NCBI GenBank assembly: GCA_000989765.1
Contig: LBOW01000001.1
Location: 47,660-111,659 of the forward strand
Source: Candidatus Woesebacteria bacterium GW2011_GWB1_33_22
GTDB taxonomy: Bacteria > Patescibacteriota > Microgenomatia > UBA8517
Reading direction: 5' to 3'
Length of the DNA: 64,000 bases
Under the pieces are notes generated by a model. It saw only the letters and a program-made list of their open reading frames with translations. It ran no database searches and was not told the DNA's origin. The translations under genes were made by a program, and so were the position numbers. Positions 1,433 to 64,000 of this stretch are shown here, one piece after another; positions within the stretch are counted from its first letter, which is position 1; each line of letters begins with the position of its first letter.

Positions 1433-2422
1433 ATGTCAAGTAAATCAATCAAGATTGCGATTGTAAGTGGGGCATCCAAAAACGACGATGCCGTGAGGGG
1501 AATTGGAGTACACACTTCTCAACTGTTTGAACAGTTGAGACAATTATCAATTAACAATTATCAATTTTCAATTACCAAGAGTACTAGCCAAGCTGATATA
1601 GTTCATTTTACTGTTTTTAGACCGTTTTTTATTTCTTTACCATTTTTTAAATCAAAGAACCAAAAATTGGTTTTGACAATTCATGATTTGATTCCATTGA
1701 TCTACCCTAATCATTATCCTGCTGGAATTAGAGGTAAAATTAAATTTTTAATTAACAAGTTTTTGGTTTGGAAAAATATTGATCAAATTATAACTATTTC
1801 TGAAACTAGCAAAAAGGATATTTGCAGATTTTTACAAGTTGATCCAAAAATTGTCAATGTAATTTATCTTGCCCCAAAAGAAATTTATAAAAAATCTAAA
1901 GTTATTAATAATTATAAATTACCCAATAAATTTGTACTGTACACAGGGGATATTAATTATAATAAAAATATTCCTAATTTAATTAAAGCTTGTGAAATTG
2001 CAAAAATTCCCTTAGTTATTGCAGGTAAGCACGCTAAAGAAATTCAAAATATGGATTTAAAACATGCAGAATTAAAACACCTTAACAATATTGATTGGTC
2101 AGGTGTAATTAGGGTTGGTTTTGTCCCCGATGAAATTCTAGTTGATTTATATAATTTAGCAACAGTTTATGTACAGCCTTCTTTGTATGAAGGTTTTGGA
2201 TTGCCTGTTTTAGATGCTGTTGCTTGTGGTACACCAATTGTCGTTACGAAAACACAAGCGTTGGTTGAAATACTTGGAACAAATTTAAATTATGTTGATC
2301 CTAACGATCCAAAAGATATGGCACGAGGAATTTTAAATCCAAATAAAAATATAAAATTACCAAGAGAATATTCATGGCAGAAAACAGCTGAAGAAACATT
2401 AGAAGTCTATGTCAAAGCGTGA
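1433..2422 (+). CDS. glycosyltransferase, GT-B fold (GT4-like)
   Basis: C-terminal motif EGFGLPVLDAVACGTPIVVT is the classic GT4 E-x7-E region. N-terminal Rossmann-like half. Confidence 0.85.
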   Translation: MSSKSIKIAIVSGASKNDDAVRGIGVHTSQLFEQLRQLSINNYQFSITKSTSQADIVHFTVFRPFFISLPFFKSKNQKLVLTIHDLIPLIYPNHYPAGIRGKIKFLINKFLVWKNIDQIITISETSKKDICRFLQVDPKIVNVIYLAPKEIYKKSKVINNYKLPNKFVLYTGDINYNKNIPNLIKACEIAKIPLVIAGKHAKEIQNMDLKHAELKHLNNIDWSGVIRVGFVPDEILVDLYNLATVYVQPSLYEGFGLPVLDAVACGTPIVVTKTQALVEILGTNLNYVDPNDPKDMARGILNPNKNIKLPREYSWQKTAEETLEVYVKA

Positions 2423-3446
2423 TTATTGGTTTATTTTAAAAAGTTATTTGGTTTGGAGAATTGCAATAACGATTGTAGCTATATTGGCCATTAATTATAT
2501 ACCAAGATTTAGTGATAATTTTTTCGGGGGGAGATTATTAAATTACGAAGCTAATCCACTTCTTTGGGGATGGGCAAATTTTGACGGAGAACATTACCTT
2601 TCTATTGCTATAAACGGTTATAAAGATTTACAACAAGCTTATTTTCCCTTTTATCCCCTTTTAATAAGATTATTTGGTGGTTCTATCGTTGTGGCAATTC
2701 TAATTTCTAATATCTCATTTCTAGTTGCTATCGTAGGTTTATACAAATTAATTAGATTGGATTATTCAGAAAAAACAGCAGAATTAGCCATTATTTTACT
2801 TTTAATATTTCCAACCTCTTTCTTTTTTGCAACTGTCTATACAGAAAGTTTATTTTTAGCTCTTGTTGTTTGGAGTTTTTTTCTTTTTAGAAGGCAAAAG
2901 TATTTTTCTGGGTTAGTTTTAGGTACATTATCTTCTTTAACGCGTGCAATTGGTATTATTCCAATTGGGTTACTTTCATATATGACTTATTCAAAATATC
3001 GCTGGGGTGATTATCTTACTTTTTTTCATAATCAAACCTATTTTGGTGAGCATAGGAGTAACCAAATAATTTTATTGCCTCAAGTCTTATATAGGTATTT
3101 AGTTAAGATTATTCCTAATTTAAATTGGGAATATTTTCCAATAGTTTTTACAACCTTTCTTGAAGCAATTATTGCTATTATATTCTTAATTATAATCATT
3201 TATTCTTTCAAAAGAATTAGATTTGAATATTGGTTGTTTTTAGCCTTTGGATATTTATTACCAACGTTATCTGGAAGTTTTTCGTCACTCCCAAGATATG
3301 TTGTAGTCTTATTCCCAGCTTTTATATACATGGCAACAAGATTCAAAGATATTAAAAAAAGTTTTTTAATCGTAGGGCTATTCATAACAAGTTTGATTGC
3401 AATCGCTACAGAAATGATGTTTATTAGGGGTTATTTTGTGTCATAG
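2409..3446 (+). CDS. polytopic membrane glycosyltransferase-like protein (GT-C, PIG-V/DUF2029-like mannosyltransferase motif)
   Basis: About 10 TM helices. Motif WANFDGEHYLSIAINGY followed by FPFYPLL resembles the WDg.hYl.IA..GY / FPlyP signature of PIG-V-like mannosyltransferases. Start overlaps the upstream stop. Confidence 0.5.
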   Translation: MSKRDYWFILKSYLVWRIAITIVAILAINYIPRFSDNFFGGRLLNYEANPLLWGWANFDGEHYLSIAINGYKDLQQAYFPFYPLLIRLFGGSIVVAILISNISFLVAIVGLYKLIRLDYSEKTAELAIILLLIFPTSFFFATVYTESLFLALVVWSFFLFRRQKYFSGLVLGTLSSLTRAIGIIPIGLLSYMTYSKYRWGDYLTFFHNQTYFGEHRSNQIILLPQVLYRYLVKIIPNLNWEYFPIVFTTFLEAIIAIIFLIIIIYSFKRIRFEYWLFLAFGYLLPTLSGSFSSLPRYVVVLFPAFIYMATRFKDIKKSFLIVGLFITSLIAIATEMMFIRGYFVS

Positions 3447-3454
3447 AGCATAAT

Positions 3455-4705
3455 ATGAAAAAAATAAAAGATTTAATGAAACATCCACTTTTTTCGGGTA
3501 GTGCAATCATGTTTGTTGGGAGTATGGGAGCCAACGCAATTAATTATTTGTACCATTTAATTATGGGTAGGCTTCTTGGCCCTGTTGAATATGGAATTTT
3601 GGCGAGTCTCTATTCAATCATGTATTTAATTAGCATTATTCCGTCTTCTGCTAGTGTTTCTATAGTTAAATATATTTCTTCGTCTAAAAGTATAAATGTA
3701 TATTCGGTTTATTCAGAAATTAATAAATTTATTTTTAAAATTTCATTGATAATTTCATTATTAATTCTTTTCTCATCAAAAGTAATTGCAAATTTCTTAA
3801 ATATTGATAATTTATTATCAATAATACTTCTTGCTCCTGTTTTATTTTTATCTTTGGTTACATTAGTTAATCAGGCAACATCACAGGGGCTGATTAAATT
3901 TGTTGGACATATTGTTCCGAATTTAATATCTTCAGTATTTAAACTATTGCTTGGAATATTTTTTATTTATATTGGATGGTCGGTTGCTGGTGCGATGTTT
4001 GCAGTAACAATTGGTGCCCTTTTTGCTTATTTTTATAGTTTTAATTTTATAAAAAAACATATTTCTAAAACTAAATTACGAAAAATTGACATTATGCCAT
4101 TTATTAGATATTCGGCTCCAGTACTGTTACAGTCTTTGGCTTTTACATCTATATTTACAATCGATGTAATGTTGGCAAAACATTTTCTAGATCCTTTTTC
4201 GGCCGGAATTTATGCAGCTCTTTCAACATTAGGAAAAATAATCTTTTTTGCCACTTCTCCTGTTACTGCAACCATGTTTCCTGTAATCTCCAAAAGAATA
4301 AGTTTAAAACAAGAATATAAAAAAATATTTTTCCTATCACTTCTTGCCACTTTTGCTATCGCATTTGTAATAACCTGCTTTTATTGGATATTTCCAAATA
4401 TTGCCATTGGAGTATTGTATGGAAGAGAATACATTTCTGCTAAAACCGATTTAGTTTGGATGGGATTTTTTATTCTTTTTTATACTCTTTCAAACTTAAT
4501 TGTAAATTTCTTTCTTTCTATTGGCAAACTCAAAATTGTTATTATTCCAATTTTGGCTGCGCTGATTCAAATATTGGTTATTTGGACTAATCATGATAGT
4601 ATTACTGAAATTATACAGATATCTTTTTACACCACTTTAACAATGTTTATTTTGTTGATAGGATATACAGGCTACAATTTAATTTATGAACCAAAAAGAT
4701 TATAA
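3455..4705 (+). CDS. polysaccharide/oligosaccharide flippase (Wzx-like, MOP superfamily)
   Basis: 416 aa with about 12-14 TM helices. N-terminal region typical of polysaccharide biosynthesis (Wzx) proteins. Sits in a glycan locus. Confidence 0.7.
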   Translation: MKKIKDLMKHPLFSGSAIMFVGSMGANAINYLYHLIMGRLLGPVEYGILASLYSIMYLISIIPSSASVSIVKYISSSKSINVYSVYSEINKFIFKISLIISLLILFSSKVIANFLNIDNLLSIILLAPVLFLSLVTLVNQATSQGLIKFVGHIVPNLISSVFKLLLGIFFIYIGWSVAGAMFAVTIGALFAYFYSFNFIKKHISKTKLRKIDIMPFIRYSAPVLLQSLAFTSIFTIDVMLAKHFLDPFSAGIYAALSTLGKIIFFATSPVTATMFPVISKRISLKQEYKKIFFLSLLATFAIAFVITCFYWIFPNIAIGVLYGREYISAKTDLVWMGFFILFYTLSNLIVNFFLSIGKLKIVIIPILAALIQILVIWTNHDSITEIIQISFYTTLTMFILLIGYTGYNLIYEPKRL

Positions 4706-4717
4706 ATTAAAAAAATT

Positions 4718-5494
4718 ATGAACCAAAAAAATAAAGGCAAAAATCAATTTCTATCTGTTATTGTTCCAACTTATAAACAAGAAAGAACGATAAAAAAAGA
4801 TTTAGAAAATATTATTGACACACTTGATAGTGGTTTATCAAATATTGACTTTGAAATAATTTGTGTGATTGACGGTAAAATTGATAATACTTCAAAAGAA
4901 GCAAAAAAAATTAAATCAAACAAACTAAAAGTGTATGAATATAACAATAATCAGGGTAAGGGTTATGCTGTTAGATTTGGGATGAGTAAGGCAAAAGGTG
5001 ATTTGATATCTTTTCTAGATGCGGGTATGGATATTTCTCCAAAGGGAATAATGATGCTTATGGCACATATGGATTGGTACAACGCTGATATTATAGTAGG
5101 TAGTAAAAAACATCCAGTTTCTAAAGTTAACTACCCAATTTTAAGAAAAATATTAAGTTTGGGTTATCATCTAGGGGTTAGAATTCTTTTTGGACTTGAT
5201 CTTTCTGATACTCAAAGTGGTATAAAAATATTTAGAAGAGAAGTGGTGGAAAAAATACTTCCTAGACTTTTAGTTAAAACTTATGCAATGGATATTGAAA
5301 TGCTGGCTGTGGCTAAATACTTAGGCTTTGACAGAATTTACGAAGGTCCAATTGAAGTAACATTTAGTAAACTAACAAGTGCAGTTAGATGGAACACTAG
5401 TTTTAAGATGGCATGGGATACCTTAGCAGTTTTTTACCGATTAAAAGTTCTTCATTATTATGATGACAAAAATATAAACAACTGGATAAATTAG
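4718..5494 (+). CDS. glycosyltransferase family 2 (GT-A fold)
   Basis: N-terminal SVIVPTYKQE..., DGKIDNTS, and the DxD-like FLDAG motif. Confidence 0.8.
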   Translation: MNQKNKGKNQFLSVIVPTYKQERTIKKDLENIIDTLDSGLSNIDFEIICVIDGKIDNTSKEAKKIKSNKLKVYEYNNNQGKGYAVRFGMSKAKGDLISFLDAGMDISPKGIMMLMAHMDWYNADIIVGSKKHPVSKVNYPILRKILSLGYHLGVRILFGLDLSDTQSGIKIFRREVVEKILPRLLVKTYAMDIEMLAVAKYLGFDRIYEGPIEVTFSKLTSAVRWNTSFKMAWDTLAVFYRLKVLHYYDDKNINNWIN

Positions 5495-5509: not shown

Positions 5510-6484
5510 ATGACTATTATAAGTATTGAAAGTATGAATAAAGGTATGAAAGTAGTAAATTCTGTTCGTACTGCAATGAACGACTTGATGCCTCCAATAG
5601 AAATTAAGGCCTCAAAAAGAGATTTAACTATCTCTCTGGGAATAGCAGTATCTGAAAAAGAGAATGATTGGTATGGTGCGTTAAGTATATTTGGGAATAT
5701 TTATAAAGATAATGATGGAAATCCAACAAATGATGAGCGTGTTAAAGCTGGAATATGGGCAAGTCAGATGCTTATAAATCTAGGTAGACTTAAACAGGCA
5801 ACTGGCATACTTGATGGATGTTCAAAATTGTTGGCTAAAATAAATGATGACGATTTAAAATTACAACTTGAAGCCTTCGTTTTAGAAAAAAGAGCATGGG
5901 TCTCCGATTATCGAGGAAAACCTAAAATGGCATTAAAATACTTAAATGATGCAAAAAATCTTTTTGATTCTCTTGGTGCGGGTTTGTCTGATGAATTTGT
6001 CGAGTCTCGATCAACAGTCGAACATTTTTTGGGACGAGTCAATTTCGAGTTAGGAAATTTTGATACTGCGATAATTCATTTTAATATAGATTTAGGTAAT
6101 TACAAAAGGGGTAGAAAAAATGGTAAACCTAAATCGTATGGTGAAGCATTTAATCTTGAATGGTTAGCTAGATGTTACGCATACAAAAACGAATTTCAAA
6201 GATCAAGGGAGCTTATTGATGAATCAATTCCATTTTTTGAGGAAGAATCAAAACTGAGAGGGAGTAGAGCAATAATTGCGCATTATTGCTTGACGAATGC
6301 AGAGATATCATTATTAGATTCAAAACCTACAGATGCTGTTTATTTTGCAAATGAAGCATTAAAACTGCGCGAGACGGAATTGCCAAAGTTTTCTAAAGGA
6401 AAAATAGAAGCTAGATTTGTTTTAGCGATCGCCCTATATTCTAGTATACCTTTTGTTTTTAAGGACCTTTTTGATCTTAACTAA
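5510..6484 (+). CDS. hypothetical soluble helical (TPR-like?) protein
   Basis: 324-aa ORF with no TM segments and noticeably less AT-skewed composition than its neighbours. No catalytic motif recognised. Confidence 0.5.
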   Translation: MTIISIESMNKGMKVVNSVRTAMNDLMPPIEIKASKRDLTISLGIAVSEKENDWYGALSIFGNIYKDNDGNPTNDERVKAGIWASQMLINLGRLKQATGILDGCSKLLAKINDDDLKLQLEAFVLEKRAWVSDYRGKPKMALKYLNDAKNLFDSLGAGLSDEFVESRSTVEHFLGRVNFELGNFDTAIIHFNIDLGNYKRGRKNGKPKSYGEAFNLEWLARCYAYKNEFQRSRELIDESIPFFEEESKLRGSRAIIAHYCLTNAEISLLDSKPTDAVYFANEALKLRETELPKFSKGKIEARFVLAIALYSSIPFVFKDLFDLN

Positions 6485-6496: not shown

Positions 6497-7618
6497 ATGA
6501 TTTGCATGAATATTTTAGTTTTTTCTTGGCGTGATCCAAAACACCCGTTAGCTGGTGGTGCTGAGCAAGTGATGCATGAACACATGAAAGGGTGGATTGA
6601 AGTAGGTCATAATGTCACATTTTTTTCATCAAAGGTAAAAGGTCTTGTTGATTATGAGAAAATAGATGGAGTAGAAATAATTAGACAAGGAAATCAATAT
6701 TTAGGTGTCCAAATTAAAGGTTTTTTATATTACCTAAAAAATATAAATAATTTTGATTTGATAGTTGACCAGTTTCATGGTATTCCTTTTTTTACACCAC
6801 TGTACGTTAAAAAACCAATCCTCGCGGTTTTACAGGAAGTTGCCAAAGAGGTGTGGTTTAAAAATCCATTTAATTTTCCAATAAATGTAATTGTTGGTTT
6901 AATTGGTTATATTTTAGAGCCTGTAATTTTTCTTTTGTATAAAAATTGTAAATTTATGGTTGGCTCAAATTCTGCCAAAGAAGATTTAATTAAATTTATG
7001 ATACCTTCAAAAAATATTACAATAGTTCCGCATGGGGTATTGCTTCCCAAAAAATTGCCTGATCATAAAGTTACAAACCCCCAAATAGTTACCTATTTTG
7101 GGCCCCTAACGGGGGATAAGGGAATAATGGATGCAATAGAAACATTTAGTATTGTAAGTCTTTCAGGAGATTATAGATTTTACGTCATTGGTAGACCTGA
7201 AACCGACAATTATTATAGAAAAGTATTACAAAAGATTAACAAATACAAACTTAAAGAAAAAATCACATTTTATAAACGACCAGACGATGAAGAAAAGTTT
7301 AAGATTCTTTCAAAGTCGTATCTATTAATCAATCCGTCAATAAGAGAAGGGTGGGGACTTGTAAATATAGAAGCAAATTCTGTTGGTACTCCGGTAGTTG
7401 CATATAATTCAGCGGGTTTAGTAGATTCGGTTAAAGATGGGTATTCTGGGGTAATTGTTTCTGAAAATTCCCCTCAAAAAATAGCTGAAATAATTATCAA
7501 TCTCTTATTGAATAAGGATAAATATAAAAAACTTCAAAGGACGTCTATTCTCTGGAGCAAAAAATTTGATTGGAAGATATCAAAAAAAATATCTCAAAAA
7601 TTAATACCAAATATTTGA
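6497..7618 (+). CDS. glycosyltransferase, GT-B fold (GT4-like)
   Basis: MNILVFSWRDPKHPLAGGAEQ N-terminus; C-terminal EGWGLVNIEANSVGTPVVA...DGYSGV motif. An alternative start lies at Met4 (6506). Confidence 0.8.
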   Translation: MICMNILVFSWRDPKHPLAGGAEQVMHEHMKGWIEVGHNVTFFSSKVKGLVDYEKIDGVEIIRQGNQYLGVQIKGFLYYLKNINNFDLIVDQFHGIPFFTPLYVKKPILAVLQEVAKEVWFKNPFNFPINVIVGLIGYILEPVIFLLYKNCKFMVGSNSAKEDLIKFMIPSKNITIVPHGVLLPKKLPDHKVTNPQIVTYFGPLTGDKGIMDAIETFSIVSLSGDYRFYVIGRPETDNYYRKVLQKINKYKLKEKITFYKRPDDEEKFKILSKSYLLINPSIREGWGLVNIEANSVGTPVVAYNSAGLVDSVKDGYSGVIVSENSPQKIAEIIINLLLNKDKYKKLQRTSILWSKKFDWKISKKISQKLIPNI

Positions 7619-16120: not shown

Positions 16121-16170
16121 TATAAAAACCAATTATACCTTATTAATGCAAAGTGTGATATATTTTCTTT

Positions 16171-20345: not shown

Positions 20346-20363
20346 AAGTGCAATATTACTAGA

Positions 20364-52182: not shown

Positions 52183-52353
52183 ATGTATAATTGTAGTGTG
52201 AATAATATCTCAAAAATATTAATAGGCTTATCTTTTTTAGGTTTTTTAATAATAGGCTTTTTACTTTTAACTAACCACCTCGGATTAGCGACCAAAATAT
52301 CTGGTTATATATTTTTTATATTGATTCTTGGTATATGCTTAAAAACAAACTAA
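52183..52353 (+). CDS. possible small two-TM peptide (56 aa), unannotated in the ORF track
   Basis: ATG at 52183 gives MYNCSVNNISKILIGLSFLGFLIIGFLLLTNHLGLATKISGYIFFILILGICLKTN, with two clear hydrophobic helices. It fills the only sizeable gap (52171-52334) in a run of same-strand genes. No strong RBS. Confidence 0.2.
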   Translation: MYNCSVNNISKILIGLSFLGFLIIGFLLLTNHLGLATKISGYIFFILILGICLKTN

Positions 52354-56109: not shown

Positions 56110-57920
56110 CATCCTAGCCAAAGCTCAAGCATTAAAAGACTCCATTTTTTTTGGTCAGTGTCAAGATTAATTTTTGAAAGGTCAATAAAATCCTTTATCT
56201 TTGAGTTTTTAGTAAAAAGCTTGTCTTTATAATAATTGTTTAAATCTCCCCTAAACCATTCATCAAGGGGTATTGTAAAGCCCATTTTAGGTCTATAAAG
56301 ATTTTCTTTAGGCACGATTTTTTCAAGAGCCCTTTTAAATATATATTTAGTTTCTCCATTTTTGACCTTTAGATTAAATGGGATTTGACAGGCTAATTCA
56401 ACCATTTTTTGATCTAAAATTGGAGATCTTGCTTCTAATCCATAATACATGGTGGCGATATCCATCTTGGTTAATAATTGATCAGGTAAAAAATATAGAA
56501 GATCAAATTTTAAACCAGCGTCTTTTAAATCTTTACCATTAAATCTTTGAAAAGTTCTTCTGACATATTGATACAAATTATTTGTTGTTAATGTCTTAGA
56601 TAAAGGTTTTTGAGCCATTCTAAAAATTTCATCTAAAGAAAAAATTTGATTATATGAAGAAAATCTTTCATAAAGGGGAAGTTTGGACTTGTCTAAAAAT
56701 TTAGAAACTCTTTGTATTTTTAGTGCATCTAATGGTCTTAATTTACTGATCCAATAGGCATAATCAACATCTCTTTTAAGTCTTAAATATCTATTTGGAT
56801 AGCCTGCAAAATTTTCATCTCCACCATCACCATTTAGAATAACCTTGACATGTTTTTTAGCCTCTTTGCTTACTTGAAACGAAATTACGCAACTATTATC
56901 AGCAAAAGGTTCTTCATAGGCGTTGGCAATTTCAGGTAGTAGTGAAATATTAGTAGGTTTGGCTAAAATTTCGGTGTGGTCAGTTTTATATCTTTTAACT
57001 ATCAATTCTGCATATTTTTTTTCCGAATATTTTTCGTTTTCAAAATTAACAGTAAAAGTTTTTACACGATTTTGTGTGCTTAGTGCCATCATGGCTACAA
57101 CTGCGCTTGAATCCACCCCTCCAGAAAGAAATGCACCTATAGGAACGTCAGAAATCATTCTAAGTTTTGTCGATTCTTCAAGGGTCTCAAGTATTTTTTC
57201 TGACCATTCTTTTTCTGAAAGCAGAAGCTTATCTTTAAATCTAGGCTCCCAATATTTTCTTTTTAAAAATATTTTTCTTTTAATATCAATATAAATATAA
57301 TGACCAGGCTCTAATTTTTTAATATTTTTAAATCCTGTAAGAGGTGCGGGTACATATCCATAGAGAAAATACTTTTGGATAGCTAGGTTGTCTGGAATTT
57401 TTGCCACTTCAGACTGTGTAAGTATTGCCTTTAGCTCTGAAGCAAATATAAAACAATTTTCATTAAAAAAATATTTCAAAGGTTTCTTACCAATTCTGTC
57501 TCTAGCTAAAAACAATGTTTCTTCGTGTGTATCAAATATTGCAAACGCATACATACCTCTTAAATGTTTAACACAGTTTTTCTTGTATCTTGCATAGAGA
57601 GCTAGAATTACCTCAGTGTCAGAAGTAGAAACAAATTTATAGCCTTCTTGTTCAAGTTTTAATTTTTCCTCTTTAAAATTATAGATTTCATTATTCGAAA
57701 CTATGACATATCTATTCATATAAATCATTGGTTGATTGCCATTTTTTGAAAGGTCTATAATTGCAAGTCTATTGTGGCCGAAACCCACATTTCTATGAGA
57801 AGAAATATAATATCCAGTTGAATCTGGTCCGCGGTGGCTAATTTTATTGGCCATCAATTTAAGTTGATACTCGTTAACCTTTTGATTATTAAAATAAACT
57901 TTTCCGGAAATTCCACACAT
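56097..57920 (-). CDS. asnB: asparagine synthetase B-type glutamine amidotransferase (WbpS-like candidate sugar amidotransferase)
   Basis: N-terminal MCGISG (Ntn Cys), HRGPDSTG, and the PP-loop AFLSGGVDSSAVVAMMA. Confidence 0.85.
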   Translation of the reverse strand: MCGISGKVYFNNQKVNEYQLKLMANKISHRGPDSTGYYISSHRNVGFGHNRLAIIDLSKNGNQPMIYMNRYVIVSNNEIYNFKEEKLKLEQEGYKFVSTSDTEVILALYARYKKNCVKHLRGMYAFAIFDTHEETLFLARDRIGKKPLKYFFNENCFIFASELKAILTQSEVAKIPDNLAIQKYFLYGYVPAPLTGFKNIKKLEPGHYIYIDIKRKIFLKRKYWEPRFKDKLLLSEKEWSEKILETLEESTKLRMISDVPIGAFLSGGVDSSAVVAMMALSTQNRVKTFTVNFENEKYSEKKYAELIVKRYKTDHTEILAKPTNISLLPEIANAYEEPFADNSCVISFQVSKEAKKHVKVILNGDGGDENFAGYPNRYLRLKRDVDYAYWISKLRPLDALKIQRVSKFLDKSKLPLYERFSSYNQIFSLDEIFRMAQKPLSKTLTTNNLYQYVRRTFQRFNGKDLKDAGLKFDLLYFLPDQLLTKMDIATMYYGLEARSPILDQKMVELACQIPFNLKVKNGETKYIFKRALEKIVPKENLYRPKMGFTIPLDEWFRGDLNNYYKDKLFTKNSKIKDFIDLSKINLDTDQKKWSLLMLELWLGCYFS

Positions 57921-57921: not shown

Positions 57922-59424
57922 TTATTTTTCTAATTCCAGATTATCATAAATCCTAGAAAGGACAACTCCATGCCAATCGTTTATATAAATTGGTTTTTTA
58001 TTATTAAAATAAATTATTTCTTCCAAATTTGGGCTTAATAATTTCATTGATTCTTCAACAATTACAAACCTTTCTGTTTTCCAATCTGTTGAAATAGTAA
58101 CATTTGTGTAGTAAGGCAAAGTACTTTTACTACATCCCAAGTATGCAACAGATTTGATATCAGGGTATTTATTTATGAGATTTAAAATTGAAGATCGTGC
58201 TCCCATACATAAACCTATTACTTCATTAGATTGTACAATTTTAGGTCCTCCAGAAAATATGTTTCTATAAATATAGTAATTGGGGAAGTAAAAAAGTGAG
58301 ACTGTAGATGAGATCGCAAATATGCTTATTATAGCTATAGTTTTATAAAACTTATGTAATTTATTTAGAAAATAATATATTGAAATTCCAGAAAATAGGT
58401 ATAACCAAGGAATAACTGGGAAGATGTATCTAATTCCAAGTTTTTTTGCTGGAATAGAAAGTATGAGTATATATGAGATTACAAATAACGGAATAATAAT
58501 AGTTAATAACTTTTTGTTCTTTAATATCTTTTTTTTAACAAATATCGGGTAAAAAAGTAGTGAGCTAATTATTATTATGGGTAATCTAGTTAAGATCTGT
58601 TGTACATAGTAATAAAAAGGTGGATTACTTGTTATTTTCCCATTAAAAAAAGTTATAAAAGAGTTATTTGATAATTGAAATTGGTTAAAAATATATGAAT
58701 ACATATCAATTATAATATTTCCTTCCTGCCCAAGCCAAAGTAATTTTGCAAAAACTAAAAAGCAAAAAAAAGTAATTATTGTTTTGTACTGTTTAGATAA
58801 AAAAAGAGGAATAAATAAGATTAAACCAGTAGGTTTAGTTAAAAAGGCAAGACTTATAAATATCGATGAGACAATAATAGATATTTTTATATTTTTTATT
58901 AAAAAAAAGCTTGATATTGCTAAAAACATCCAAATAGTAAGCGGATAGTCAACAAGTAACCACCTGGATAATGCGATCGATGTAGGATCAATTGATAAAA
59001 GAAGACTGGCAAGTAGTGCAATATATTTATTATTGGTTATCCTTTTTGTTATGAAATAAAAAATTGCTATAAAAATAGAAGTTAAAAATACAATCGGAAT
59101 TCTGGCGGCAATGAAGTCGCTAAATAATTCAAGTGAATAATGTGTTGGTTGACCCTTAGCTAATAAGAATATTGATGCACCAGATATAATAGTTTGTGGC
59201 AAATTAATAGCTTCTGTATCGGTATCTTTTGTCCACCATGCTGACTTGAAATAGTCAAAATTATTAGTTTTAATTGCTAAAAATGCCTCTCTACTTCTGA
59301 CTGTCCAAGTGATTTCATCGGGATATATCTCAGTTGACGTTAGATTATATGAACGAAAAAGAAGAGAAATCAAGAAAATTGCAGTAGGAAATATCACATT
59401 TGACAAAAGTTTTCTCTTTTTCAT
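57922..59424 (-). CDS. GT-C fold membrane glycosyltransferase (ArnT/PMT_2-like)
   Basis: EIYPDEITWTVRSREAFLAI DE motif after the first TM helix; about 12 TM helices. Confidence 0.6.
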   Translation of the reverse strand: MKKRKLLSNVIFPTAIFLISLLFRSYNLTSTEIYPDEITWTVRSREAFLAIKTNNFDYFKSAWWTKDTDTEAINLPQTIISGASIFLLAKGQPTHYSLELFSDFIAARIPIVFLTSIFIAIFYFITKRITNNKYIALLASLLLSIDPTSIALSRWLLVDYPLTIWMFLAISSFFLIKNIKISIIVSSIFISLAFLTKPTGLILFIPLFLSKQYKTIITFFCFLVFAKLLWLGQEGNIIIDMYSYIFNQFQLSNNSFITFFNGKITSNPPFYYYVQQILTRLPIIIISSLLFYPIFVKKKILKNKKLLTIIIPLFVISYILILSIPAKKLGIRYIFPVIPWLYLFSGISIYYFLNKLHKFYKTIAIISIFAISSTVSLFYFPNYYIYRNIFSGGPKIVQSNEVIGLCMGARSSILNLINKYPDIKSVAYLGCSKSTLPYYTNVTISTDWKTERFVIVEESMKLLSPNLEEIIYFNNKKPIYINDWHGVVLSRIYDNLELEK

Positions 59425-59451: not shown

Positions 59452-60273
59452 ATGAAGATTTGGGCACATACATTAGTTAAAAACGAGGAAAAGTTTGTAT
59501 GGTATTCAGTCATGTCAATTATTAGTCATGTGGAGAAAGTTTTACTTTGGGACACTGGGAGTACTGACAATACACCTGAAATTTTAAAAGAATTAAAAAG
59601 AAGATATCCAAATAAAATTGACCTTAATTTTTTAGGTAATGTTACAGTAGATGAATTTACTGAAATTAGACAGCAAATGTTAAATGTTACTAAATCGGAT
59701 TGGTTTATAGTTTCCGATGCTGATGAAATTTGGTGGCAGGATTCAATTGCGACATTATCAACAGCAATTCGTGATAGAGGGTTAAGTGTTGAATCAATTT
59801 ACACTCCTGCAGTTTTATTAGTAGGTGATATGTTTCATTTTCAAGAAGAACGTGCGGGAAATTATAAATTAGGGGGTCAAAAAGGCCATTTTGGACTAAA
59901 AGCCATTAATAGAAATATTTCAGGGCTTTCCTCACTAAATCCTCACGGTTCTTGGGGTTGGGTTGATGGAGATAAAAAAATGGTACAGGATAGAGATCCA
60001 CAAAAACTATTGTTTGTTAATGCACCGTTTATGCATGCTTCTTTTTTGCAAAGATCTCAGAGTAGATTGTTAGATAACAAAGTTCCCAAAAGGAAAAAAA
60101 AGTATAAATTTGAATTTGGTGATAGGTTTCCATTGGACTATTTCTATCCTGAAGTTTTTTTTCAACCAAGGCCAGATTTTGTTGATAGTGTTTGGCAAAC
60201 AACAAATTTTGGCTTTAAATTTAAAGCTTTTTTTCAAACACCATTTAAAAAGATTAAAAGAAGACTAATATGA
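59452..60273 (+). CDS. GT-A fold (family 2-like) glycosyltransferase, soluble
   Basis: HTLVKNEEKFV...LLWDTGSTDNTPEIL...IVSDADEIW (NEE / DxGSxD / DAD motifs). Confidence 0.5.
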   Translation: MKIWAHTLVKNEEKFVWYSVMSIISHVEKVLLWDTGSTDNTPEILKELKRRYPNKIDLNFLGNVTVDEFTEIRQQMLNVTKSDWFIVSDADEIWWQDSIATLSTAIRDRGLSVESIYTPAVLLVGDMFHFQEERAGNYKLGGQKGHFGLKAINRNISGLSSLNPHGSWGWVDGDKKMVQDRDPQKLLFVNAPFMHASFLQRSQSRLLDNKVPKRKKKYKFEFGDRFPLDYFYPEVFFQPRPDFVDSVWQTTNFGFKFKAFFQTPFKKIKRRLI

Positions 60274-60953
60274 ATAAGACCAATTATAAAAAATACCACA
60301 GAGATGACACATATTTGGAAAATGAAAGTCTTTTTAGGAATATTTTTCAAAAAAGATATACCTTAATTTCAAAATATATCGAAAGTCCTTCAAAAGTATT
60401 AGATATTGGTTGCTCAAATGGGGTATTTTTAGATTTGTATATGGAGAGTGAAACTTGGGGGGTAGAGCCTTCACAAAATGCTCATAAAATAAATAAAAAA
60501 CATAAAGTTATTAATTCAACTTTTGAGATAGCAAAACTGCCATTAAATTATTTTGACTTGGTAATAATGAATCACACACTGGAACATCTAAAAAGACCAA
60601 GTGATGTTTTAACAAAGATTAAATCATTACTTAAAAAAGACGGCATAGTATTTATAGATGTGCCTAATGTCGGGAGTTTATCCTCCAAAATTTTGGGCAA
60701 TAAATGGCCATATTTATTGCCAGAGGAACATCTTTGGCAATTTGATAAAAAAAGTATTACTAAACTTACTAAAGATGCTGGATTTGAAGTTCTTCATTGG
60801 GAATCAAGATCCGGAATTTTTGAATATACAAATCCTTTTCTGGAATTAAAAAGGAAGAGATTTTTAATTGATATTTTAACTATTCCTTATGCTTTAATTG
60901 CTACCATTTTTAATATGGGGGATAGTATGAGTATCGTTGCAATGAAACAATGA
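60270..60953 (+). CDS. class I SAM-dependent methyltransferase with C-terminal hydrophobic segment
   Basis: VLDIGCSNGVFLD...FDLVIMNHTLEHL...LKKDGIVFIDVPN; C-terminal LIDILTIPYALIATIF. Confidence 0.75.
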   Translation: MNKTNYKKYHRDDTYLENESLFRNIFQKRYTLISKYIESPSKVLDIGCSNGVFLDLYMESETWGVEPSQNAHKINKKHKVINSTFEIAKLPLNYFDLVIMNHTLEHLKRPSDVLTKIKSLLKKDGIVFIDVPNVGSLSSKILGNKWPYLLPEEHLWQFDKKSITKLTKDAGFEVLHWESRSGIFEYTNPFLELKRKRFLIDILTIPYALIATIFNMGDSMSIVAMKQ

Positions 60954-61171
60954 AAAAAGTAAAAAAATGCGATTTTCAAATAGAAGGTGAATGGGGGAGC
61001 AGACATCAGTTATGTTCTTGTGTAGGAAAGGAAGGTGAAGAAGGTAACTGTTTAAAACAACAAATCGCTGAAGGTAAAGTTAAGTTAGTTAAAGGACATG
61101 GTCCATACGATGAAGTGTGCGAAGGCCGTTGTTTACAAGAACAAATTAAACGAAGAACTCAGGAAGGTTAA
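60950..61171 (+). CDS. small Cys-rich, Glu/Gly/Lys-rich protein (73 aa), unknown function
   Basis: ORF in ATGA overlap with the upstream MTase. Six Cys (CDF, CSC, NC, VC, RC). Local GC content and codon choice are visibly different from surrounding genes. Confidence 0.4.
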   Translation: MKKVKKCDFQIEGEWGSRHQLCSCVGKEGEEGNCLKQQIAEGKVKLVKGHGPYDEVCEGRCLQEQIKRRTQEG

Positions 61172-61743
61172 TCATAAGTTTATCTATGGTTGAAAACAAT
61201 ATTGTATTTATATTTAATTTTTTAGCTGATTCAATATTATTATCTTGATTATCAATAAATAACATTTCCCTCGGTTTAATTTTAAGATCATCTAATACAT
61301 ATTTAAAAATTCTCGAATTTGGCTTTGAAATTCCAAGTTGTGAAGAACAATAAAGTTTGTCAAATATTCTTTCTAATTTAAATTTTTGAATTTTTGACAA
61401 ATAAATATCATCAGAATCATTAGCTATCATTACTATTTTATAATTTTTAATTAATTTTTTAATTATATTTAATAGTTTTTTGTCTATCCATATCGCTTCA
61501 TAATATTTGTTACTTAAAATAACTGGATTTATTTTTTTGAGAGATATTTTTGATACTTCAACCCAAAATTGTTTCATCGTTTTTACCCCAATCTTTAATT
61601 CGGGCCAATGATCCTCAAAAATTTTTTGAAGAATGATCTTTGTCAAAACCTGTTAATTTGAGGATATTTTTAAAAGTATTATTCCAGTCATTAGCATCAG
61701 GACCTAGTACTCCACCAAAATCAAAAGCAATAACTTTTATCAT
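61146..61743 (-). pseudogene. HAD-superfamily hydrolase interrupted by a frameshift in an A5/T6 homopolymer run (or sequencing error)
   Basis: Minus-strand ATG at 61743 encodes MIKVIAFDFGGVLGPDAND (HAD motif I, DxG) and runs to a stop at 61615-61617. The main ORF 61146-61646, in a different frame, carries the distal HAD motifs (GISKPNSRIF, FIDNQDNN). The frames meet at caaaaatttttt (61616-61627). Confidence 0.5.
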
Positions 61744-61766: not shown

Positions 61767-63440
61767 TTAATATTTAAATGGTTCGTATTTAAAATCGACA
61801 AATTTAGTATCATTTTTTATATTTACTTGTCTTGTTTTTTCTGTTGTTTCAAGTACTTTAGTTTTTTCTTTGCCATTTAAATAAGCATTCCAATTTGGAT
61901 TATAAACTTCTGGAATTACTAGTTTGTCAGTTTCGTTTTGTATTATTACCCGTATAAAATTTGGTTTATATATTTCATAATTTGGTTTTTTATATAGTAA
62001 ATTTTCATAAATATCATAATTATCAATTGTTTTTACTAATTTTAGATTATCTCTGCTAATTTTATATGGAGATATTATATATTTAATACGATATTCAGCT
62101 AGAACTGGTGGATATGGCTTGAATTTTTCATGCAAATAATTTTGAAAAGGTGGAATTGATAAAGAGTATTTTTTATCCCAGTAGCCTTGTGTAATTTGTT
62201 GGCTGTATTCAAAATAATTTTTTTGCTGTAAAGTGCCATATCCTTCGACCAATTCAATATTATTAATTGCTGCGTCTTTTTGTCGAATACATTTTGTTAA
62301 ACAAAAAACACGATATATATCCACATCCTCTGTTAAGAATGCAATAATTCCAGGTGGTGTTGATTCTACAAGTTTAATAGGCTTACTAAATATATATTTT
62401 CCTATTAATAAATATTCGATTAATGAAAGTAATCCGAACACAAGAAGTAGCTTCTTATTTTTAGAAGTCAAATAATCTAACCCTTTTGCAGCTAAATACA
62501 TAGTAATTATTATTATAGGAAACCAAAATCTAGTCGAAACTCTAAATAATATAAACCAATCAAAAGTTAAGATATTTAATGCTAAAATCGAAATGGTAGC
62601 CACAGAAATAAAAACATAAATTTTATTTTTAGTAGTTGACTTAATATATCCCAGAGTTGCAAGTATAAATACGACGATACCAAAAGTTATATTTTTTTCT
62701 GTATCCCTAGTTGCAATAAATATATTTTTAATAAATTCTCTTTTACCATTCCAAACAGGATAAGTTTCTGGGCTCTGTAGTAAAAACTCTCTGGTAGTCA
62801 ATTCTTGCCATCTAAGTTGCGGAGTCAATATAGGTAAACTTATCAATAGCAATATTAAATGGCTAAGTAAGAACAACGAAAATGATTTTTTGTTTCTATA
62901 TAAAAAGAATACCCCATTGGTTACGAGTAAAATTAGAAAAATTAATATATGGCTGGTATAAACTAAATATAAAAAGAGTGATAAAAGAAGGATTGATTTT
63001 AAACTCTTCTTTTGAATTAGGTTTATTGTTGACCAGTAAACCCAAGGTATAAATGCCCATGATTGAATAAGACCAAGGTGTCCAGCTTCTAAATATGAAA
63101 AGAATTTTGGAGAGAGAGAAAACAATATTGCGATAATAAGACTGGTTTTTTGTGTAACACTGTTTATTTTAAGCAAGAAATACATACCAAGACCGGCAAT
63201 AATCATGTGAATTAAGATTGAAATTAAAATTCCAGTATCAATCGGAAGAAGCAAGAAAATAATATTTAGCGGGTAAATAAATAAATTTTGAGGATCAGGT
63301 AAAAGTGGTGTACCTGAAAAAAACATCTTGTTCCATAAGGGAATTCCGTCTCCAGATAACAATTGTTCTTTTATGTAATAAATTAATGGCCAGAAAAACT
63401 CAGTTAGGTCATTATTTCGATTTAGTATAAAATTAAACAT
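61767..63440 (-). CDS. YfhO-family polytopic membrane protein (GT-C-like glycosyltransferase)
   Basis: N-terminal FWPLIYYIKEQLLSGDGIPLWNKMFFSGTPLLPDPQNLFIYPLN...IHMIIAGLGMYFLLK resembles the YfhO signature. About 14 TM helices, hydrophilic C-terminus. Confidence 0.6.
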   Translation of the reverse strand: MFNFILNRNNDLTEFFWPLIYYIKEQLLSGDGIPLWNKMFFSGTPLLPDPQNLFIYPLNIIFLLLPIDTGILISILIHMIIAGLGMYFLLKINSVTQKTSLIIAILFSLSPKFFSYLEAGHLGLIQSWAFIPWVYWSTINLIQKKSLKSILLLSLFLYLVYTSHILIFLILLVTNGVFFLYRNKKSFSLFLLSHLILLLISLPILTPQLRWQELTTREFLLQSPETYPVWNGKREFIKNIFIATRDTEKNITFGIVVFILATLGYIKSTTKNKIYVFISVATISILALNILTFDWFILFRVSTRFWFPIIIITMYLAAKGLDYLTSKNKKLLLVFGLLSLIEYLLIGKYIFSKPIKLVESTPPGIIAFLTEDVDIYRVFCLTKCIRQKDAAINNIELVEGYGTLQQKNYFEYSQQITQGYWDKKYSLSIPPFQNYLHEKFKPYPPVLAEYRIKYIISPYKISRDNLKLVKTIDNYDIYENLLYKKPNYEIYKPNFIRVIIQNETDKLVIPEVYNPNWNAYLNGKEKTKVLETTEKTRQVNIKNDTKFVDFKYEPFKY

Positions 63441-63443
63441 TTA

Positions 63444-63472
63444 TTGCTAGAATTAATATTACCACTTACAAT
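63444..63472 (+). promoter_or_regulatory. sigma70-like promoter TTGCTA-17 bp-TACAAT upstream of 63483 gene
   Basis: -35 TTGCTA (63444-63449), 17-nt spacer, -10 TACAAT (63467-63472), in the 42-bp divergent intergenic region. AGGA lies immediately before the ATG. Confidence 0.3.
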
Positions 63473-63482
63473 ATTAAATAGG

Positions 63483-64000
63483 ATGAAAAAAGTTATTTTA
63501 ATTAGCCTTATTTTTATACATTTATATTTACTTTTAAACTTGAAGTTTACACCTTGGCCAGAAATGCTATCTTTCCCATATCTTTTCTCAAATGGGTTTA
63601 CTTTGTATAAAGACTTTATAATTCCATATCCTCCATTTTTAGTTATTTTATTAAGTATAATTTATAAAATATTTGGTTATAAAATATTGGTTTTGAAAAT
63701 ATTTACATGGGCTTTAATATTATTGACTGACCTATTTATTTACAAGATTGTAGATCTTGTGACAAAGAAAAAGTCTTTTGCACTCATTTCAGTTGCAGTT
63801 TTTGTTTTTATTCAGCCCTTTTTGGATGGTAATATGCTTTGGTTTGATACTTTTTTAGTATTACCTGTTTTAGTTTCAGTCTTTTTTTTGCTACAGGATA
63901 AAAATATTAACAAAAACATTTTATTAGCTGGTGTTTTTTTGGCAATTTCAATTTTTAGTAAACAAACTGCCTTAATATATCTTTTAGTTTCCACAATATT
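63483..64000 (+). CDS. polytopic membrane protein, GT-C-like (3' partial at window edge)
   Basis: MKKVILISLIFIHLYLLLNLKFTPWPEM... with multiple TM helices; the ORF runs off the window. Confidence 0.5.
   Translation, partial: MKKVILISLIFIHLYLLLNLKFTPWPEMLSFPYLFSNGFTLYKDFIIPYPPFLVILLSIIYKIFGYKILVLKIFTWALILLTDLFIYKIVDLVTKKKSFALISVAVFVFIQPFLDGNMLWFDTFLVLPVLVSVFFLLQDKNINKNILLAGVFLAISIFSKQTALIYLLVSTI

Follow-up and report, generated by a model that had tools for sequence, protein, structure and literature searches.

Multi-component transmembrane glycosylation, which combines a GT-A glycosyltransferase, a flippase and a GT-C enzyme, has been described in Gram-positive bacteria (PMC8035078), and Gram-negative GT136 belongs to a three-component system with a carbohydrate-binding module (CBM) and a MATE flippase (PMC11127046). 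These multi-component systems are the closest mechanistic relatives of the locus described here, which is unusually dense by comparison. A first-pass annotation of the locus had taken the pairing of GT-Cs with carbohydrate-binding modules as a mycobacterial hallmark; since the Gram-positive and Gram-negative systems share this logic, the pairing is not confined to mycobacteria.

The stretch of DNA analysed (64,000 nucleotides, hereafter the window) comes from a contig of Candidatus Woesebacteria (Microgenomates, CPR) with a GC content of ~29%, and this placement bears out the earlier guess of an AT-rich, CPR-like genome. The host is an uncultured groundwater bacterium with a tiny genome, and more than 62 kb of it are given over to sugar-coat genes. 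ORFs are named below by their lowest coordinate, and coordinates are followed by the strand.

Extent of the locus and its GT-C content

Housekeeping genes lie upstream of the GT4 gene at 1433, the first gene of the locus. The glycan locus continues beyond both ends of the window, and just outside it are a Wzy_C gene and additional GT-Cs, which give it a polymer context. The locus core is syntenic with three other Microgenomates loci, one of them in a complete genome of 1.27 Mb. Of the 49 ORFs that are 150 aa or longer, 13–14 encode GT-Cs, far above any chance expectation.

At least twelve polytopic GT-C-like proteins had been proposed, with 14 starts. An ORF was present at every one of these starts, each with 5–12 predicted TM segments in a crude hydropathy scan; twelve of them have supported GT-C identity, and the other two (61767 and 50833) are probable GT-Cs. 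The HMM searches proposed as a check returned neither transporters nor only one or two GT-C matches: 2409, 12550, 25741, 40446 and 57922 reached the Pfam gathering score for GT-C families, and most of the others were connected via homology. The ArnT/PMT first-loop DE motif noted for several of these proteins was also located. HADEG, YPDEITW, KGDEVHY and WDE stand at residues 28–41, immediately C-terminal of the first predicted TM helix, and a conserved acidic residue lies just past TM1 in the families of 35065 (D41, invariant), 45832 (Q35-D36-E37) and 47480 (D39).

The PIG-V/Mannosyl_trans2-like GT-C 2409 (2409–3446, +; 345 aa, 5 TM) scored 28.8 bits for PF04188 (cut-off 22.4) and 25.3 for PMT_2. 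PMT_2-type GT-Cs are 12550 (12550–14598, +; 682 aa; 54.4 bits) and 25741 (25741–27930, +; 729 aa; 34.1 bits), the latter with HADEG past TM1 at residue 28. The PMT_2/PMT-type 40446 (40446–42527, −; 693 aa; PMT_2 33.5, PMT 23.0 bits), with WDE past TM1, is a paralogue of 12550 at 33% identity. YPDEITW follows TM1 in the PMT-type 57922 (57922–59424, −; 500 aa; PMT 35.5, GT22 21.9 bits). The PMT_2-like 63483 (63483–64000, +), clipped by the window end, has 441 aa in the source contig; its PMT_2 score was 30.1 bits as a fragment and 25.0 at full length, slightly below the cut-off of 26.1.

The YfhO/AftD-like 61767 (61767–63440, −; 557 aa) scored 15.3 bits for GT-C_AftD (E 0.005), its orthologue in locus L007 reached 29.8 bits for YfhO against a cut-off of 28.5, and hhalign linked it to the 52335 group (92.6%, E 4.6e-7). 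The narrowly distributed 50833 (50833–52170, +; 445 aa, 10 TM) has KGDEVHY past TM1. Its sole family match was NCBIfam NF047440 (putative glycosyltransferase; E 1.6e-6, and E 4.5e-8 for a 90% homologue), which the PMT_2-like 63483 also matched; hhalign found no link from 50833 to other GT-C families. 50833 is a probable and not a demonstrable GT-C.

A GT-C superfamily without a Pfam model

Profile and sequence comparisons place 23249, 35065, 37773 and 45832 in one Microgenomates-centred GT-C superfamily that has no Pfam model. The family of 23249 (23249–24772, −; 507 aa) counts 201 relatives among 1.84 billion representatives, and hhalign linked it to the 45832 family (99.7%, E 1.2e-25), the 35065 family (99%, E 3e-18) and the PMT_2 group (93%). 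The 45832 and 35065 families matched each other at 98.8–99% (E 1e-16 to 5e-18). Among the 127 relatives of 45832 (45832–47496, +; 554 aa), PMT_2 was found in 2 and discoidin domains in many, and Q35 D36 E37 past TM1 was invariant. The 45832-type gene lies next to the AftD-like gene on its upstream side, an adjacency kept in other genomes.

In 35065 (35065–37788, +; 907 aa), a TM domain without a Pfam model is joined to a C-terminal CBM32/discoidin domain (residues 675–796). The start of its tandem paralogue 37773 (37773–40442, +; 889 aa; 34% identity, E 1e-157) overlaps its end. The earlier claim of large C-terminal domains, some of them discoidin-like, holds to differing degrees: 35065 gave a strong F5/8 type C match at 55 bits, the match of 37773 was borderline at 27.7, and that of 12550, at 22.1, was weak.

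AftD-like proteins

In their predicted fold and topology, 47480 (47480–50455, +; 991 aa) and 52335 (52335–54836, +; 833 aa) are AftD-like. Structure prediction, which the first-pass annotation had recommended, gave mycobacterial AftD as the best match of 47480, followed by AftA; identity to AftD was 12%. The protein has a TM domain at ~1–435, a beta-rich periplasmic CBM-like region at ~450–960 and a C-terminal TM helix at 965–986, and mycobacterial AftD likewise has an N-terminal TM domain, a long periplasmic beta-rich region and a C-terminal TM helix. Its paralogue 52335, also with a C-terminal TM helix, was assigned by hhalign as a full-length homologue (52335 group versus 47480 family 99.2%, E 3.6e-19, 739 columns). 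A Wzx gene directly follows the 52335-type GT-C here and in loci L006 and L007. Directly after 47480 lies a small conserved membrane protein (50456–50839, +; 127 aa, ~3–4 hydrophobic segments) without a Pfam match, whose homologues occupy the matching position in L005–L007. It is not a GtrA protein.

Lipid-linked donors, flippases and cytoplasmic glycosyltransferases

The two proteins named earlier as GtrB/ArnC/DPM1-type synthases are full-length homologues of ArnC and GtrB enzymes of solved structure. The ArnC-like 15179 (15179–16132, −), a GT2 with two C-terminal TM helices, matched ArnC 9hwj (E 5.7e-42, residues 10–300), GtrB 5eke (E 3.7e-30) and NCBIfam ArnC (E 2e-54). The GtrB/PgfS-like 19419 (19419–20381, −), with three C-terminal hydrophobic segments, matched GtrB 5ekp (E 2.6e-79, residues 14–316) and NCBIfam PgfS (E 1.2e-77). 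Donor synthases of the GtrB/ArnC/PgfS type point to hexose or amino-sugar carriers.

Two Wzx flippases, three GT-B and about seven GT-A enzymes had been counted; we found two Wzx, three GT4 and eight GT2 proteins, the two synthases included. The Wzx/MOP flippases lie at 3455–4705 (+; 10 TM; Polysacc_synt_3 61, Polysacc_synt 60 bits, weak MatE) and 54829–56109 (+; 11 TM; Polysacc_synt 100.7 bits). The GT4 (GT-B) genes, scored by Glycos_transf_1, are at 1433–2422 (+; 85.5 bits), 6497–7618 (+; 98 bits) and 11293–12537 (+; 139 bits). GT2 (GT-A) genes, scored by Glycos_transf_2, are at 4718–5494 (+; 82.8 bits), 16665–17693 (+; 57 bits), 17681–18736 (+; 100 bits), 59452–60273 (+; 33 bits) and 21084–22310 (−; 89 bits); the last encodes a protein that is extended by 170 aa at the N-terminus and has one TM helix, and its GT2 domain is related to the ArnC-like 15179 (BLASTP E 3e-18).

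Sugar-tailoring and other genes

The toolbox for aminated, acetylated, carbamoylated, amidated and methylated sugars was recovered as three DegT proteins, three hexapeptide domains, a carbamoyltransferase, an AsnB and six methyltransferase genes. DegT-family sugar aminotransferases (PF01041) are encoded at 10199–11296 (+; 337 bits), 31460–32632 (+; 406 bits) and 29437–31521 (+; 382 bits). The last is fused to an SDR 4-epimerase-like domain (Epimerase 177 bits), and its best PDB matches were QdtB and WbpE (residues 1–365) and epimerases (373–689). An SDR sugar-nucleotide epimerase/dehydratase (9182–10180, +; Epimerase 149, GDP_Man_Dehyd 146 bits), an SDR epimerase (22307–23248, −; Epimerase 182 bits) and a GFO/IDH/MocA sugar oxidoreductase for a WbpB-like step (27985–28989, +; PF01408 98.8 bits) are also present. 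Hexapeptide acetyltransferases were found at 28973–29440 (+; Hexapep 75 bits), at 45101–45835 (+; 45 bits) and, fused to a GT2, at 32636–33760 (+; Hexapep; Glycos_transf_2 86 bits). The O-carbamoyltransferase (43392–45113, +) scored 190 bits for Carbam_trans_C and 137 for Carbam_trans_N; the AsnB-type glutamine amidotransferase (56097–57920, −; Asn_synthase 292, GATase_7 142 bits) likely amidates a uronic acid.

SAM methyltransferases are encoded at 18733–19413 (+; Methyltransf_11 64.8 bits), 20364–21083 (+; Methyltransf_23 51 bits), 24800–25744 (+; Methyltransf_11 93 bits), 42557–43387 (+; Methyltransf_31 64.8 bits) and 60270–60953 (+; Methyltransf_23 106 bits), and 7641–9167 (+) carries two such domains in one protein (Methyltransf_11/25/23, each in two stretches). 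The remaining genes encode a TPR protein whose C-terminal TM helix spans 299–317 (5510–6484, +; TPR_2/TPR_12), a DUF5667 protein whose N-terminal TM helix spans 3–21 (14633–15178, +; PF18915 29.1 bits), a second DUF5667-like protein (16171–16668, +; 24.3 bits, slightly under the cut-off) and a soluble 301-aa protein matching no Pfam or NCBIfam family (33757–34662, −).

Discussion

We read the window as the central part of an island for making a cell-surface glycan, with a wall-associated glycopolymer of a monoderm-type cell as the most likely acceptor, a reading held with somewhat more confidence than doubt. The analysis shows which genes are present, their homologies and, in predicted structures, the GT-C fold; donors, acceptors, step order and product we infer, each step from family membership. 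Modified nucleotide sugars would be produced in the cytoplasm. An oxidoreductase, an aminotransferase and an acetyltransferase that form a WbpB/E/D-like set would yield di-N-acetylated amino sugars, and epimerases, the AsnB amidotransferase, the carbamoyltransferase and the methyltransferases would modify sugars further. Leloir enzymes of GT4 and GT2 would build a lipid-linked oligosaccharide at the inner face, to be exported via the MOP/Wzx flippases. The two GtrB/ArnC-type enzymes would put single sugars on polyprenyl phosphate, and these carriers would then be flipped, probably by a MOP flippase because no GtrA-type flippase was found. At the outer face, the GT-Cs would move sugars from lipid carriers to the envelope glycan by elongation, branching or decoration, and much of the sugar addition would likely take place outside the membrane. 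Discoidin/CBM32 and other CBM-like periplasmic modules may grip the glycan acceptor, as in AftD. The GT-Cs may draw on a small number of shared donors and differ in acceptor or linkage; with two (perhaps three) lipid-phosphate sugar synthases for 13–14 GT-Cs, donor assignment is speculative. In scans of the window, neither an initiating phosphoglycosyltransferase nor a polymerase turned up, and a chain-length regulator, an LCP ligase and a GtrA flippase were likewise absent.

Proteins might instead be the main acceptors, through O-glycosylation of S-layer, pilin or other surface proteins with extra GT-Cs lengthening the protein-linked glycan, as likened to actinobacterial and eukaryotic PMT and to Streptococcus mutans Pgf (PgfS with the GT-Cs PgfM1/M2). 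PMT-type GT-Cs and a PgfS-like synthase suit this equally well. However, PMT_2 is generic and also spans the lipid and polysaccharide modifiers ArnT, GacL and GtlB (PMC8035078), the discoidin and CBM modules suggest glycan acceptors, the window has no S-layer or pilin gene, and STT3/PglB/PglL oligosaccharyltransferase families were unmatched in every scan; we consider protein acceptors possible but doubtful. Less probable still, and unlikely on balance, is that the GT-Cs act not on a wall polymer but on a glycolipid or lipoglycan anchored in the membrane, which they would make or decorate (as in LM/LAM, in lipoteichoic acid glycosylation or in ArnT-type lipid modification). An ArnC-like synthase, a PIG-V-like GT-C similar to enzymes working on glycolipid anchors and a YfhO-like GT-C, from a family that glycosylates lipoteichoic acid (PMC8035078), would fit it, but the window lacks LtaS, lipid-anchor and phosphatidylinositol-mannoside genes, and the SDR-fused aminotransferase 29437 is nearer QdtB/WbpE than ArnB.

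The Emb/Aft-like assembly proposed earlier stands as regards the fold and topology of 47480 and 52335, and fails as regards Emb homologues and an arabinose-donor pathway, neither of which the window contains. A true Emb/Aft arabinan or arabinogalactan pathway using decaprenyl-phospho-arabinose is very improbable. The AftD and AftA matches of the 47480 model speak for it, as does the NCBI naming of some homologues as arabinofuranosyltransferase family proteins. Against it, no window ORF matched Emb/arabinosyltransferase Pfam families, the window proteins scored below the PF11847 threshold, the 47480-family profile did not find AftD among PDB sequences, identity to AftD is 12%, and no UbiA-type phosphoribosyltransferase or DprE1/E2 homologue (arabinose-donor genes) occurs within the window. 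That the membrane ORFs encode transporters or some unrelated kind of membrane protein, the GT-C reading being an artefact of hydrophobic AT-rich sequence, has next to no probability. In its favour, the own sequences of 23249, 35065, 37773, 45832, 47480, 50833 and 52335 had no GT-C match in Pfam scans, but it is already refuted for 12–13 ORFs, which leaves 50833 as its one candidate.

Returning to the envelope-glycan reading, no description of such a system was found in the literature searched. The earlier word "undescribed" holds to that extent, and not for homologues that already carry NCBI family labels; some are named "alpha-(1->3)-arabinofuranosyltransferase family protein" and some "discoidin domain-containing protein". 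In conclusion, the chemistry of this locus is of a known kind, while the density of its GT-Cs and several of its enzyme families are new.

Census of the membrane glycosyltransferases

The first-pass annotation had read at least twelve polytopic GT-C-like proteins in an AT-rich and probably CPR-like genome. An ORF was present at all 14 of the proposed starts, the GC content was 0.27–0.32 across the whole window, and the lineage indeed lies in the Microgenomates group of the Patescibacteria group. By exact protein matching, the window falls on contig MGFO01000017.1 (assembly GCA_001791935.1) and on identical scaffolds from Rifle groundwater, and its proteins are also deposited under Candidatus Woesebacteria bacterium GWC2_33_12 and related bins. 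By a crude Kyte-Doolittle scan, each of the 14 ORFs has 5–12 hydrophobic segments. Pfam placed 6 of the 14 in GT-C families at the gathering score or above: 2409 (ORFs are named by their start) matched PIG-V/Mannosyl_trans2 (28.8 bits), 12550 and 25741 matched PMT_2 (54.4 and 34.1 bits), 40446 matched both PMT_2 (33.5 bits) and PMT (23.0 bits), and 57922 matched PMT (35.5 bits). The sixth, 63483, reached 30.1 bits against PMT_2 as the window-end fragment only, the full-length ORF (441 aa) scoring 25.0, slightly below the cut-off. The PMT_2/PMT gathering threshold was thus reached by 12550, 25741, 40446, 57922 and the 63483 fragment, and missed by 23249, 35065, 37773, 45832, 47480, 50833, 52335 and 61767; these last eight had no significant GT-C match in Pfam, even at E <= 10.

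Helix maps of two structure models (35065 and 47480), together with the hydropathy scan, indicated a polytopic N-terminal membrane domain of the GT-C kind (about 8–13 helices). Conserved acidic residues were found in the first extracytoplasmic loop, with DE/DD motifs after TM1 in 25741, 40446, 50833 and 57922, and the TM cores, as modelled, resemble those of solved GT-C enzymes. In total, 12 ORFs are well supported as GT-Cs and two, 61767 and 50833, are probable, which bears out the original count.

The protein encoded at 50833 has 10 TM segments and carries KGDEVHY after TM1. Its sole match was to the NCBIfam model 'LA_3751/LA_3752 putative glycosyltransferase' (E 1.6e-6, and E 4.5e-8 for its 90% relative), which also matches the PMT_2-like 63483. 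Neither Pfam at E <= 10 nor PDB phmmer gave a GT-C match, and hhalign linked 50833 to no other window family. Two genome-contig scans and one metagenome scan recovered one relative (90%), and therefore no profile or model could be built. We list 50833 as a putative GT-C. An MptA_B-like identity was rejected, as 50833 bears no resemblance to the MptA_B-like ORF of a related Microgenomates locus (L005:16536-17837, + strand). That 433-aa ORF is assigned to the mycobacterial MptA_B mannosyltransferase family (PF26314) in precomputed annotation; a Pfam scan gave just PMT_2, at 21 bits.

A GT-C superfamily without a Pfam model

The genes 35065 and 37773 are tandem paralogues (34% identity). They have about 60 detectable relatives, five with a PMT_2 match, and nearly all of these are unnamed metagenome proteins or entries from Microgenomates/Patescibacteria named "discoidin domain-containing protein". 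For 45832, 127 relatives were found, most without a Pfam match, two with PMT_2 and many with C-terminal discoidin domains, and this family is homologous to that of 35065 (hhalign 98.8%, E 1e-16, 483 columns). For 23249, a search of 1.84 billion representatives gave only 201 relatives at E <= 0.001; homology with the 45832 family spans its full length (hhalign 99.7%, E 1.2e-25), and a further link leads to the PMT_2 group (hhalign 93%, E 3.6e-7). Since these hhalign and identity links tie 23249, 35065, 37773 and 45832 together, we assign the four to a predicted Microgenomates-centred GT-C superfamily without a Pfam model. No mention of it was found in the literature searched.

In a 33-sequence alignment of the 35065 family, D41 is invariant and W38 and D40 are near-invariant, directly after the first TM helix; the AlphaFold model built on this alignment was confident (pLDDT 87.5, pTM 0.75). 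Q35-D36-E37 after TM1 is invariant in the 45832 family. In the 23249 family the acidic-loop signal is weaker, E40 being the majority residue only. PDB sequence searches with the 35065, 47480 and 45832 family profiles matched CBM32 alone and no TM domain, and fold comparison was therefore needed.

AftD-like enzymes and a conserved small membrane protein

The search with 47480 returned 325 relatives at E <= 0.001. Among the matches listed, about 45 of 120 carry PF11847 (GT-C_AftD/DUF3367), and for several of the listed relatives the NCBI name is "alpha-(1->3)-arabinofuranosyltransferase family protein". When 26 relatives were sampled, eight matched PF11847 at E <= 0.01 (best E 5.5e-10). In the window, Pfam gave no PF11847 match for 47480 or 52335, and 61767 scored 15.3 bits, below the gathering score of 26 bits. 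D39, in the first extracytoplasmic loop, is conserved in the 47480 family. The AlphaFold model of 47480 (pLDDT 83.5, pTM 0.81) is helical to about 435, beta-rich to about 960, and ends in a final TM helix; as predicted, this is the architecture of AftD, with an N-terminal GT-C TM domain, a long CBM-bearing periplasmic region and a C-terminal TM helix. The product of 52335 is homologous to the 47480 family along its full length (hhalign 99.2%, E 3.6e-19, 739 columns).

The case for 61767 as a GT-C is weaker, although it is probable. Its group is linked to the 52335 group (hhalign 92.6%); no direct link to the 47480 family was found, the connection being seen solely via the 52335 group. Its orthologue in a complete Woesebacteria genome (L007) scored 29.8 bits against YfhO (PF09586, gathering score 28.5 bits), largely at the C-terminal end, and 61767 itself had no YfhO match in Pfam.

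Directly 3' of the AftD-like gene there is always a small membrane ORF (window 50456-50839, + strand; L005:12925-13269, L006:13016-13423 and L007:12927-13331 in the related loci). The encoded protein (114–135 aa, about 3–4 hydrophobic segments) is well conserved, e.g. at 'VLLNxAxYFKPF' and 'IWAxR', and belongs to no Pfam family. A GtrA identity of this conserved membrane ORF (127 aa in the window) was ruled out, as it has no GtrA match. The protein may serve the AftD-like GT-C as accessory subunit or as flippase.

Lipid-linked donors, flippases and sugar tailoring

Both genes read at first pass as polyprenyl-phosphate sugar synthases encode full-length homologues of solved enzymes: 15179 matches ArnC (E 5.7e-42, residues 10–300) and 19419 matches GtrB (E 2.6e-79, residues 14–316). 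Each has a GT2 catalytic domain followed by 2–3 C-terminal TM segments. The nearest NCBIfam models are ArnC, PgfS and AglJ, and because all these matches fall below the equivalog cut-offs, sugar specificity is not assignable. The ArnC-like synthase gene lies between two genes for DUF5667 proteins (14633-15178 and 16171-16668, + strand), each with an N-terminal TM helix. The two Wzx flippases proposed, 3455 and 54829, each match Polysacc_synt in Pfam and have the expected 10–12 TM helices.

The Leloir enzymes comprise three GT4 (GT-B) and eight GT2 genes, the two synthases counted among the GT2. The proposed tailoring toolbox was likewise recovered, with three DegT aminotransferases, a GFO oxidoreductase, three hexapeptide acetyltransferase domains, a carbamoyltransferase, an AsnB amidotransferase and six methyltransferase genes. 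Three fusion proteins were seen: a double methyltransferase (7641-9167), a DegT-SDR epimerase-like protein (29437-31521) and a hexapeptide acetyltransferase-GT2 protein (32636-33760). An Ara4N (Arn) pathway was considered in view of the ArnC-like synthase and of the fusion of an aminotransferase with an SDR domain. This was not adopted, as the fused aminotransferase is nearest to QdtB/WbpE rather than ArnB, and its SDR partner is similar to 4-epimerases.

Within the window, no initiating phosphoglycosyltransferase, Wzy or LCP ligase was found, and no ORF, small ORFs included, matched a GtrA-type small flippase. The MOP flippases may substitute for GtrA, by analogy with the GacK and GT136 systems. 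No window ORF matches the Emb Pfam domains (Arabinose_trans, N- and C-terminal; unassigned ORFs checked to E <= 10), and no decaprenyl-phospho-arabinose (DPA) genes (UbiA-type synthase, DprE1/E2) were detected among window ORFs of at least 150 aa. The window also holds no tRNA or Rfam features.

Locus extent and synteny

Upstream, the locus is bounded at about 1433 by housekeeping genes. Three PMT_2 ORFs and a GT2 (L010:1-4536), some 5–10 kb upstream of the window, are set apart from the locus by helicase and pyrimidine-metabolism genes. Downstream the locus continues, about 3–10 kb past the window, with two PMT_2 ORFs, Wzy_C, and GT1/GT2/GT4 genes (L009:1-7000). The contig stretch examined thus holds about 19 GT-C genes (14 in the window and 5 in the flanks).

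The core is syntenic in three other Microgenomates loci, one of them in a complete 1.27-Mb genome. It consists of a discoidin GT-C with a PMT_2 GT-C, a 45832-like/47480-like pair followed by the small membrane ORF (114–135 aa), a 61767-like gene, and a 52335-like gene followed by Wzx in the two loci that reach that far. In the window, adjacent genes overlap by 8–17 nt at 35065/37773 (35065-40442), 45832/47480 (45832-50455) and 52335/54829 (52335-56109). These overlaps suggest that translation is coupled between paired GT-Cs, and between a GT-C and its flippase.

Several genes of other kinds lie in the same stretch. A HAD-family phosphatase gene (61146-61743, − strand) is split by a frameshift, a 42-aa ORF having motif I ('AFDFGGV') and a 166-aa ORF in another frame the remainder. 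Because the same split gene calls recur in two independent metagenome assemblies (L001, L003), the split may be genuine, marking either a pseudogene or a recoding site. A 73-aa Cys-rich, Glu/Lys-rich ORF (60950-61171, + strand) has no family match and is a gene call in each assembly of the region (L001-L004). Two soluble ORFs are also without a family, one of 301 aa (33757-34662, − strand), with a faint HD-domain match alone (E 0.034), and one of 136 aa (939-1349, + strand).

Comparison with known systems

In Gram-positive bacteria, multi-component transmembrane glycosylation is performed by CsbB/GtcA/YfhO, GtlA/GtlB and GacI-L, in which a GtrB/CsbB-type GT-A makes the polyprenyl-phosphate sugar, a GtrA/Wzx-type flippase exports it, and a PMT_2/YfhO GT-C transfers it to a wall polymer on the outer side (PMC8035078). 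All three types of part are present in the window too. However, the known systems have one GT-A per GT-C, whereas the window packs 13–14 GT-Cs and two synthases into 62 kb. It also gave no GtrA match, and four of its GT-Cs fall in the superfamily without a Pfam model. A Gram-negative variant is the GT136 three-component pentofuranose system of Citrobacter youngae O antigens (PMC11127046), which is similar in its C-terminal-CBM GT-C, its MOP/MATE-family flippase for a lipid-phosphate sugar and its post-polymerization extracytoplasmic glycosylation. It differs in having a single GT-C and a polyprenyl-phosphoribose synthase, for which the window has no counterpart.

AftD (PDB 6wbx) has homologues reported across Actinobacteria alone (bioRxiv 10.1101/2019.12.22.885152). 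As modelled, 47480 and 52335 are like AftD in topology, in the CBM-rich periplasmic region and in having it as best structural match; they differ in that sequence identity is 12%, the Pfam threshold is not reached, and their length is 833–991 aa, compared with about 1,400. At the level of the network, mycobacterial arabinogalactan/LAM assembly would share with the window the many serial outer-face GT-Cs and the lipid-phosphate donors, but its Emb homologues and DPA pathway were not found in the window. The Emb/Aft analogy first drawn was right in spirit, and structurally right for 47480 and 52335; it did not hold for AftD Pfam membership or for Emb, and nothing indicated arabinose. In the eukaryotic ER lumen, the ALG3/9/12 and ALG6/8/10 series elongate sequentially with GT-Cs and common donors. 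The likeness to the window is at the level of fold alone, and no oligosaccharyltransferase was found.

The system had also been called undescribed. The literature search turned up no paper on GT-C enzymes in CPR, Patescibacteria, Microgenomates or Woesebacteria, and a recent Patescibacteria perspective makes no mention of glycans; automated annotation, however, already labels some of the homologues. In conclusion, the mechanism is familiar, and what is new is the unusual density of GT-Cs, one superfamily that Pfam does not model, and the occurrence of an AftD-like enzyme well outside the Actinobacteria.

Proposed mechanism and acceptor, and biological meaning

Herein, we describe the process that the locus would encode. 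A membrane GT-A would load a sugar onto polyprenyl phosphate, and a flippase would then export the lipid-linked sugar. Outside the membrane, a GT-C would move it onto a putative acceptor to give the product. Such outer-face use of lipid-phosphate-linked donors is predicted from sequence, the two ArnC/GtrB-type synthases being present. Because 13–14 GT-Cs occur with two synthases, and several carry lectin-like modules, the locus points to a glycan that is elongated, branched or decorated step by step outside the membrane from common donors, by analogy with mycobacterial LM/LAM or the ER ALG series.

The CBMs and the Wzy_C gene close by lead us to favour a wall-associated glycopolymer as acceptor. 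A live alternative is the O-glycosylation of proteins. Of the systems compared, Streptococcus mutans Pgf (PgfS, PgfM1, PgfE, PgfM2) is a four-gene system for adhesins, and it is resembled in that 19419 is PgfS-like (E 1.2e-77, below the equivalog cut-off) with GT-C membrane partners and epimerases nearby; no substrate proteins, however, are evident in the window. A lipoglycan product is live as well. Returning to the wall glycopolymer, the joint reading is of a Microgenomates envelope glycopolymer assembled mostly outside the membrane by a conserved set of at least 12 GT-Cs, a CPR counterpart of mycobacterial arabinogalactan/LAM assembly, with the discoidin-bearing superfamily lacking a Pfam model (23249/35065/37773/45832) and AftD-like enzymes with the conserved small membrane protein as their partner. 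We offer this reading tentatively and consider it rather doubtful as a whole.

CPR bacteria, whose genomes are very small, are presumed to live attached to other cells, and to our knowledge almost nothing is known of their surface chemistry. More than 62 kb, or more than 80 kb with the flanks, is devoted here to surface glycans, which would be about 5% of a genome as large as that of the complete relative (1.27 Mb), and the number of GT-Cs is similar to what the entire Mycobacterium tuberculosis genome encodes. These cells thus appear to put much of their activity into building glycans outside the membrane. The locus offers candidate new GT families and an AftD-like enzyme far outside Actinobacteria, and its conserved gene set is usable as a surface-glycan marker in Microgenomates, with a bearing on host attachment, phage recognition and cultivation attempts. 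If the joint reading is true, the polymer could be central to the attachment and recognition of these ultrasmall cells by hosts and phages.
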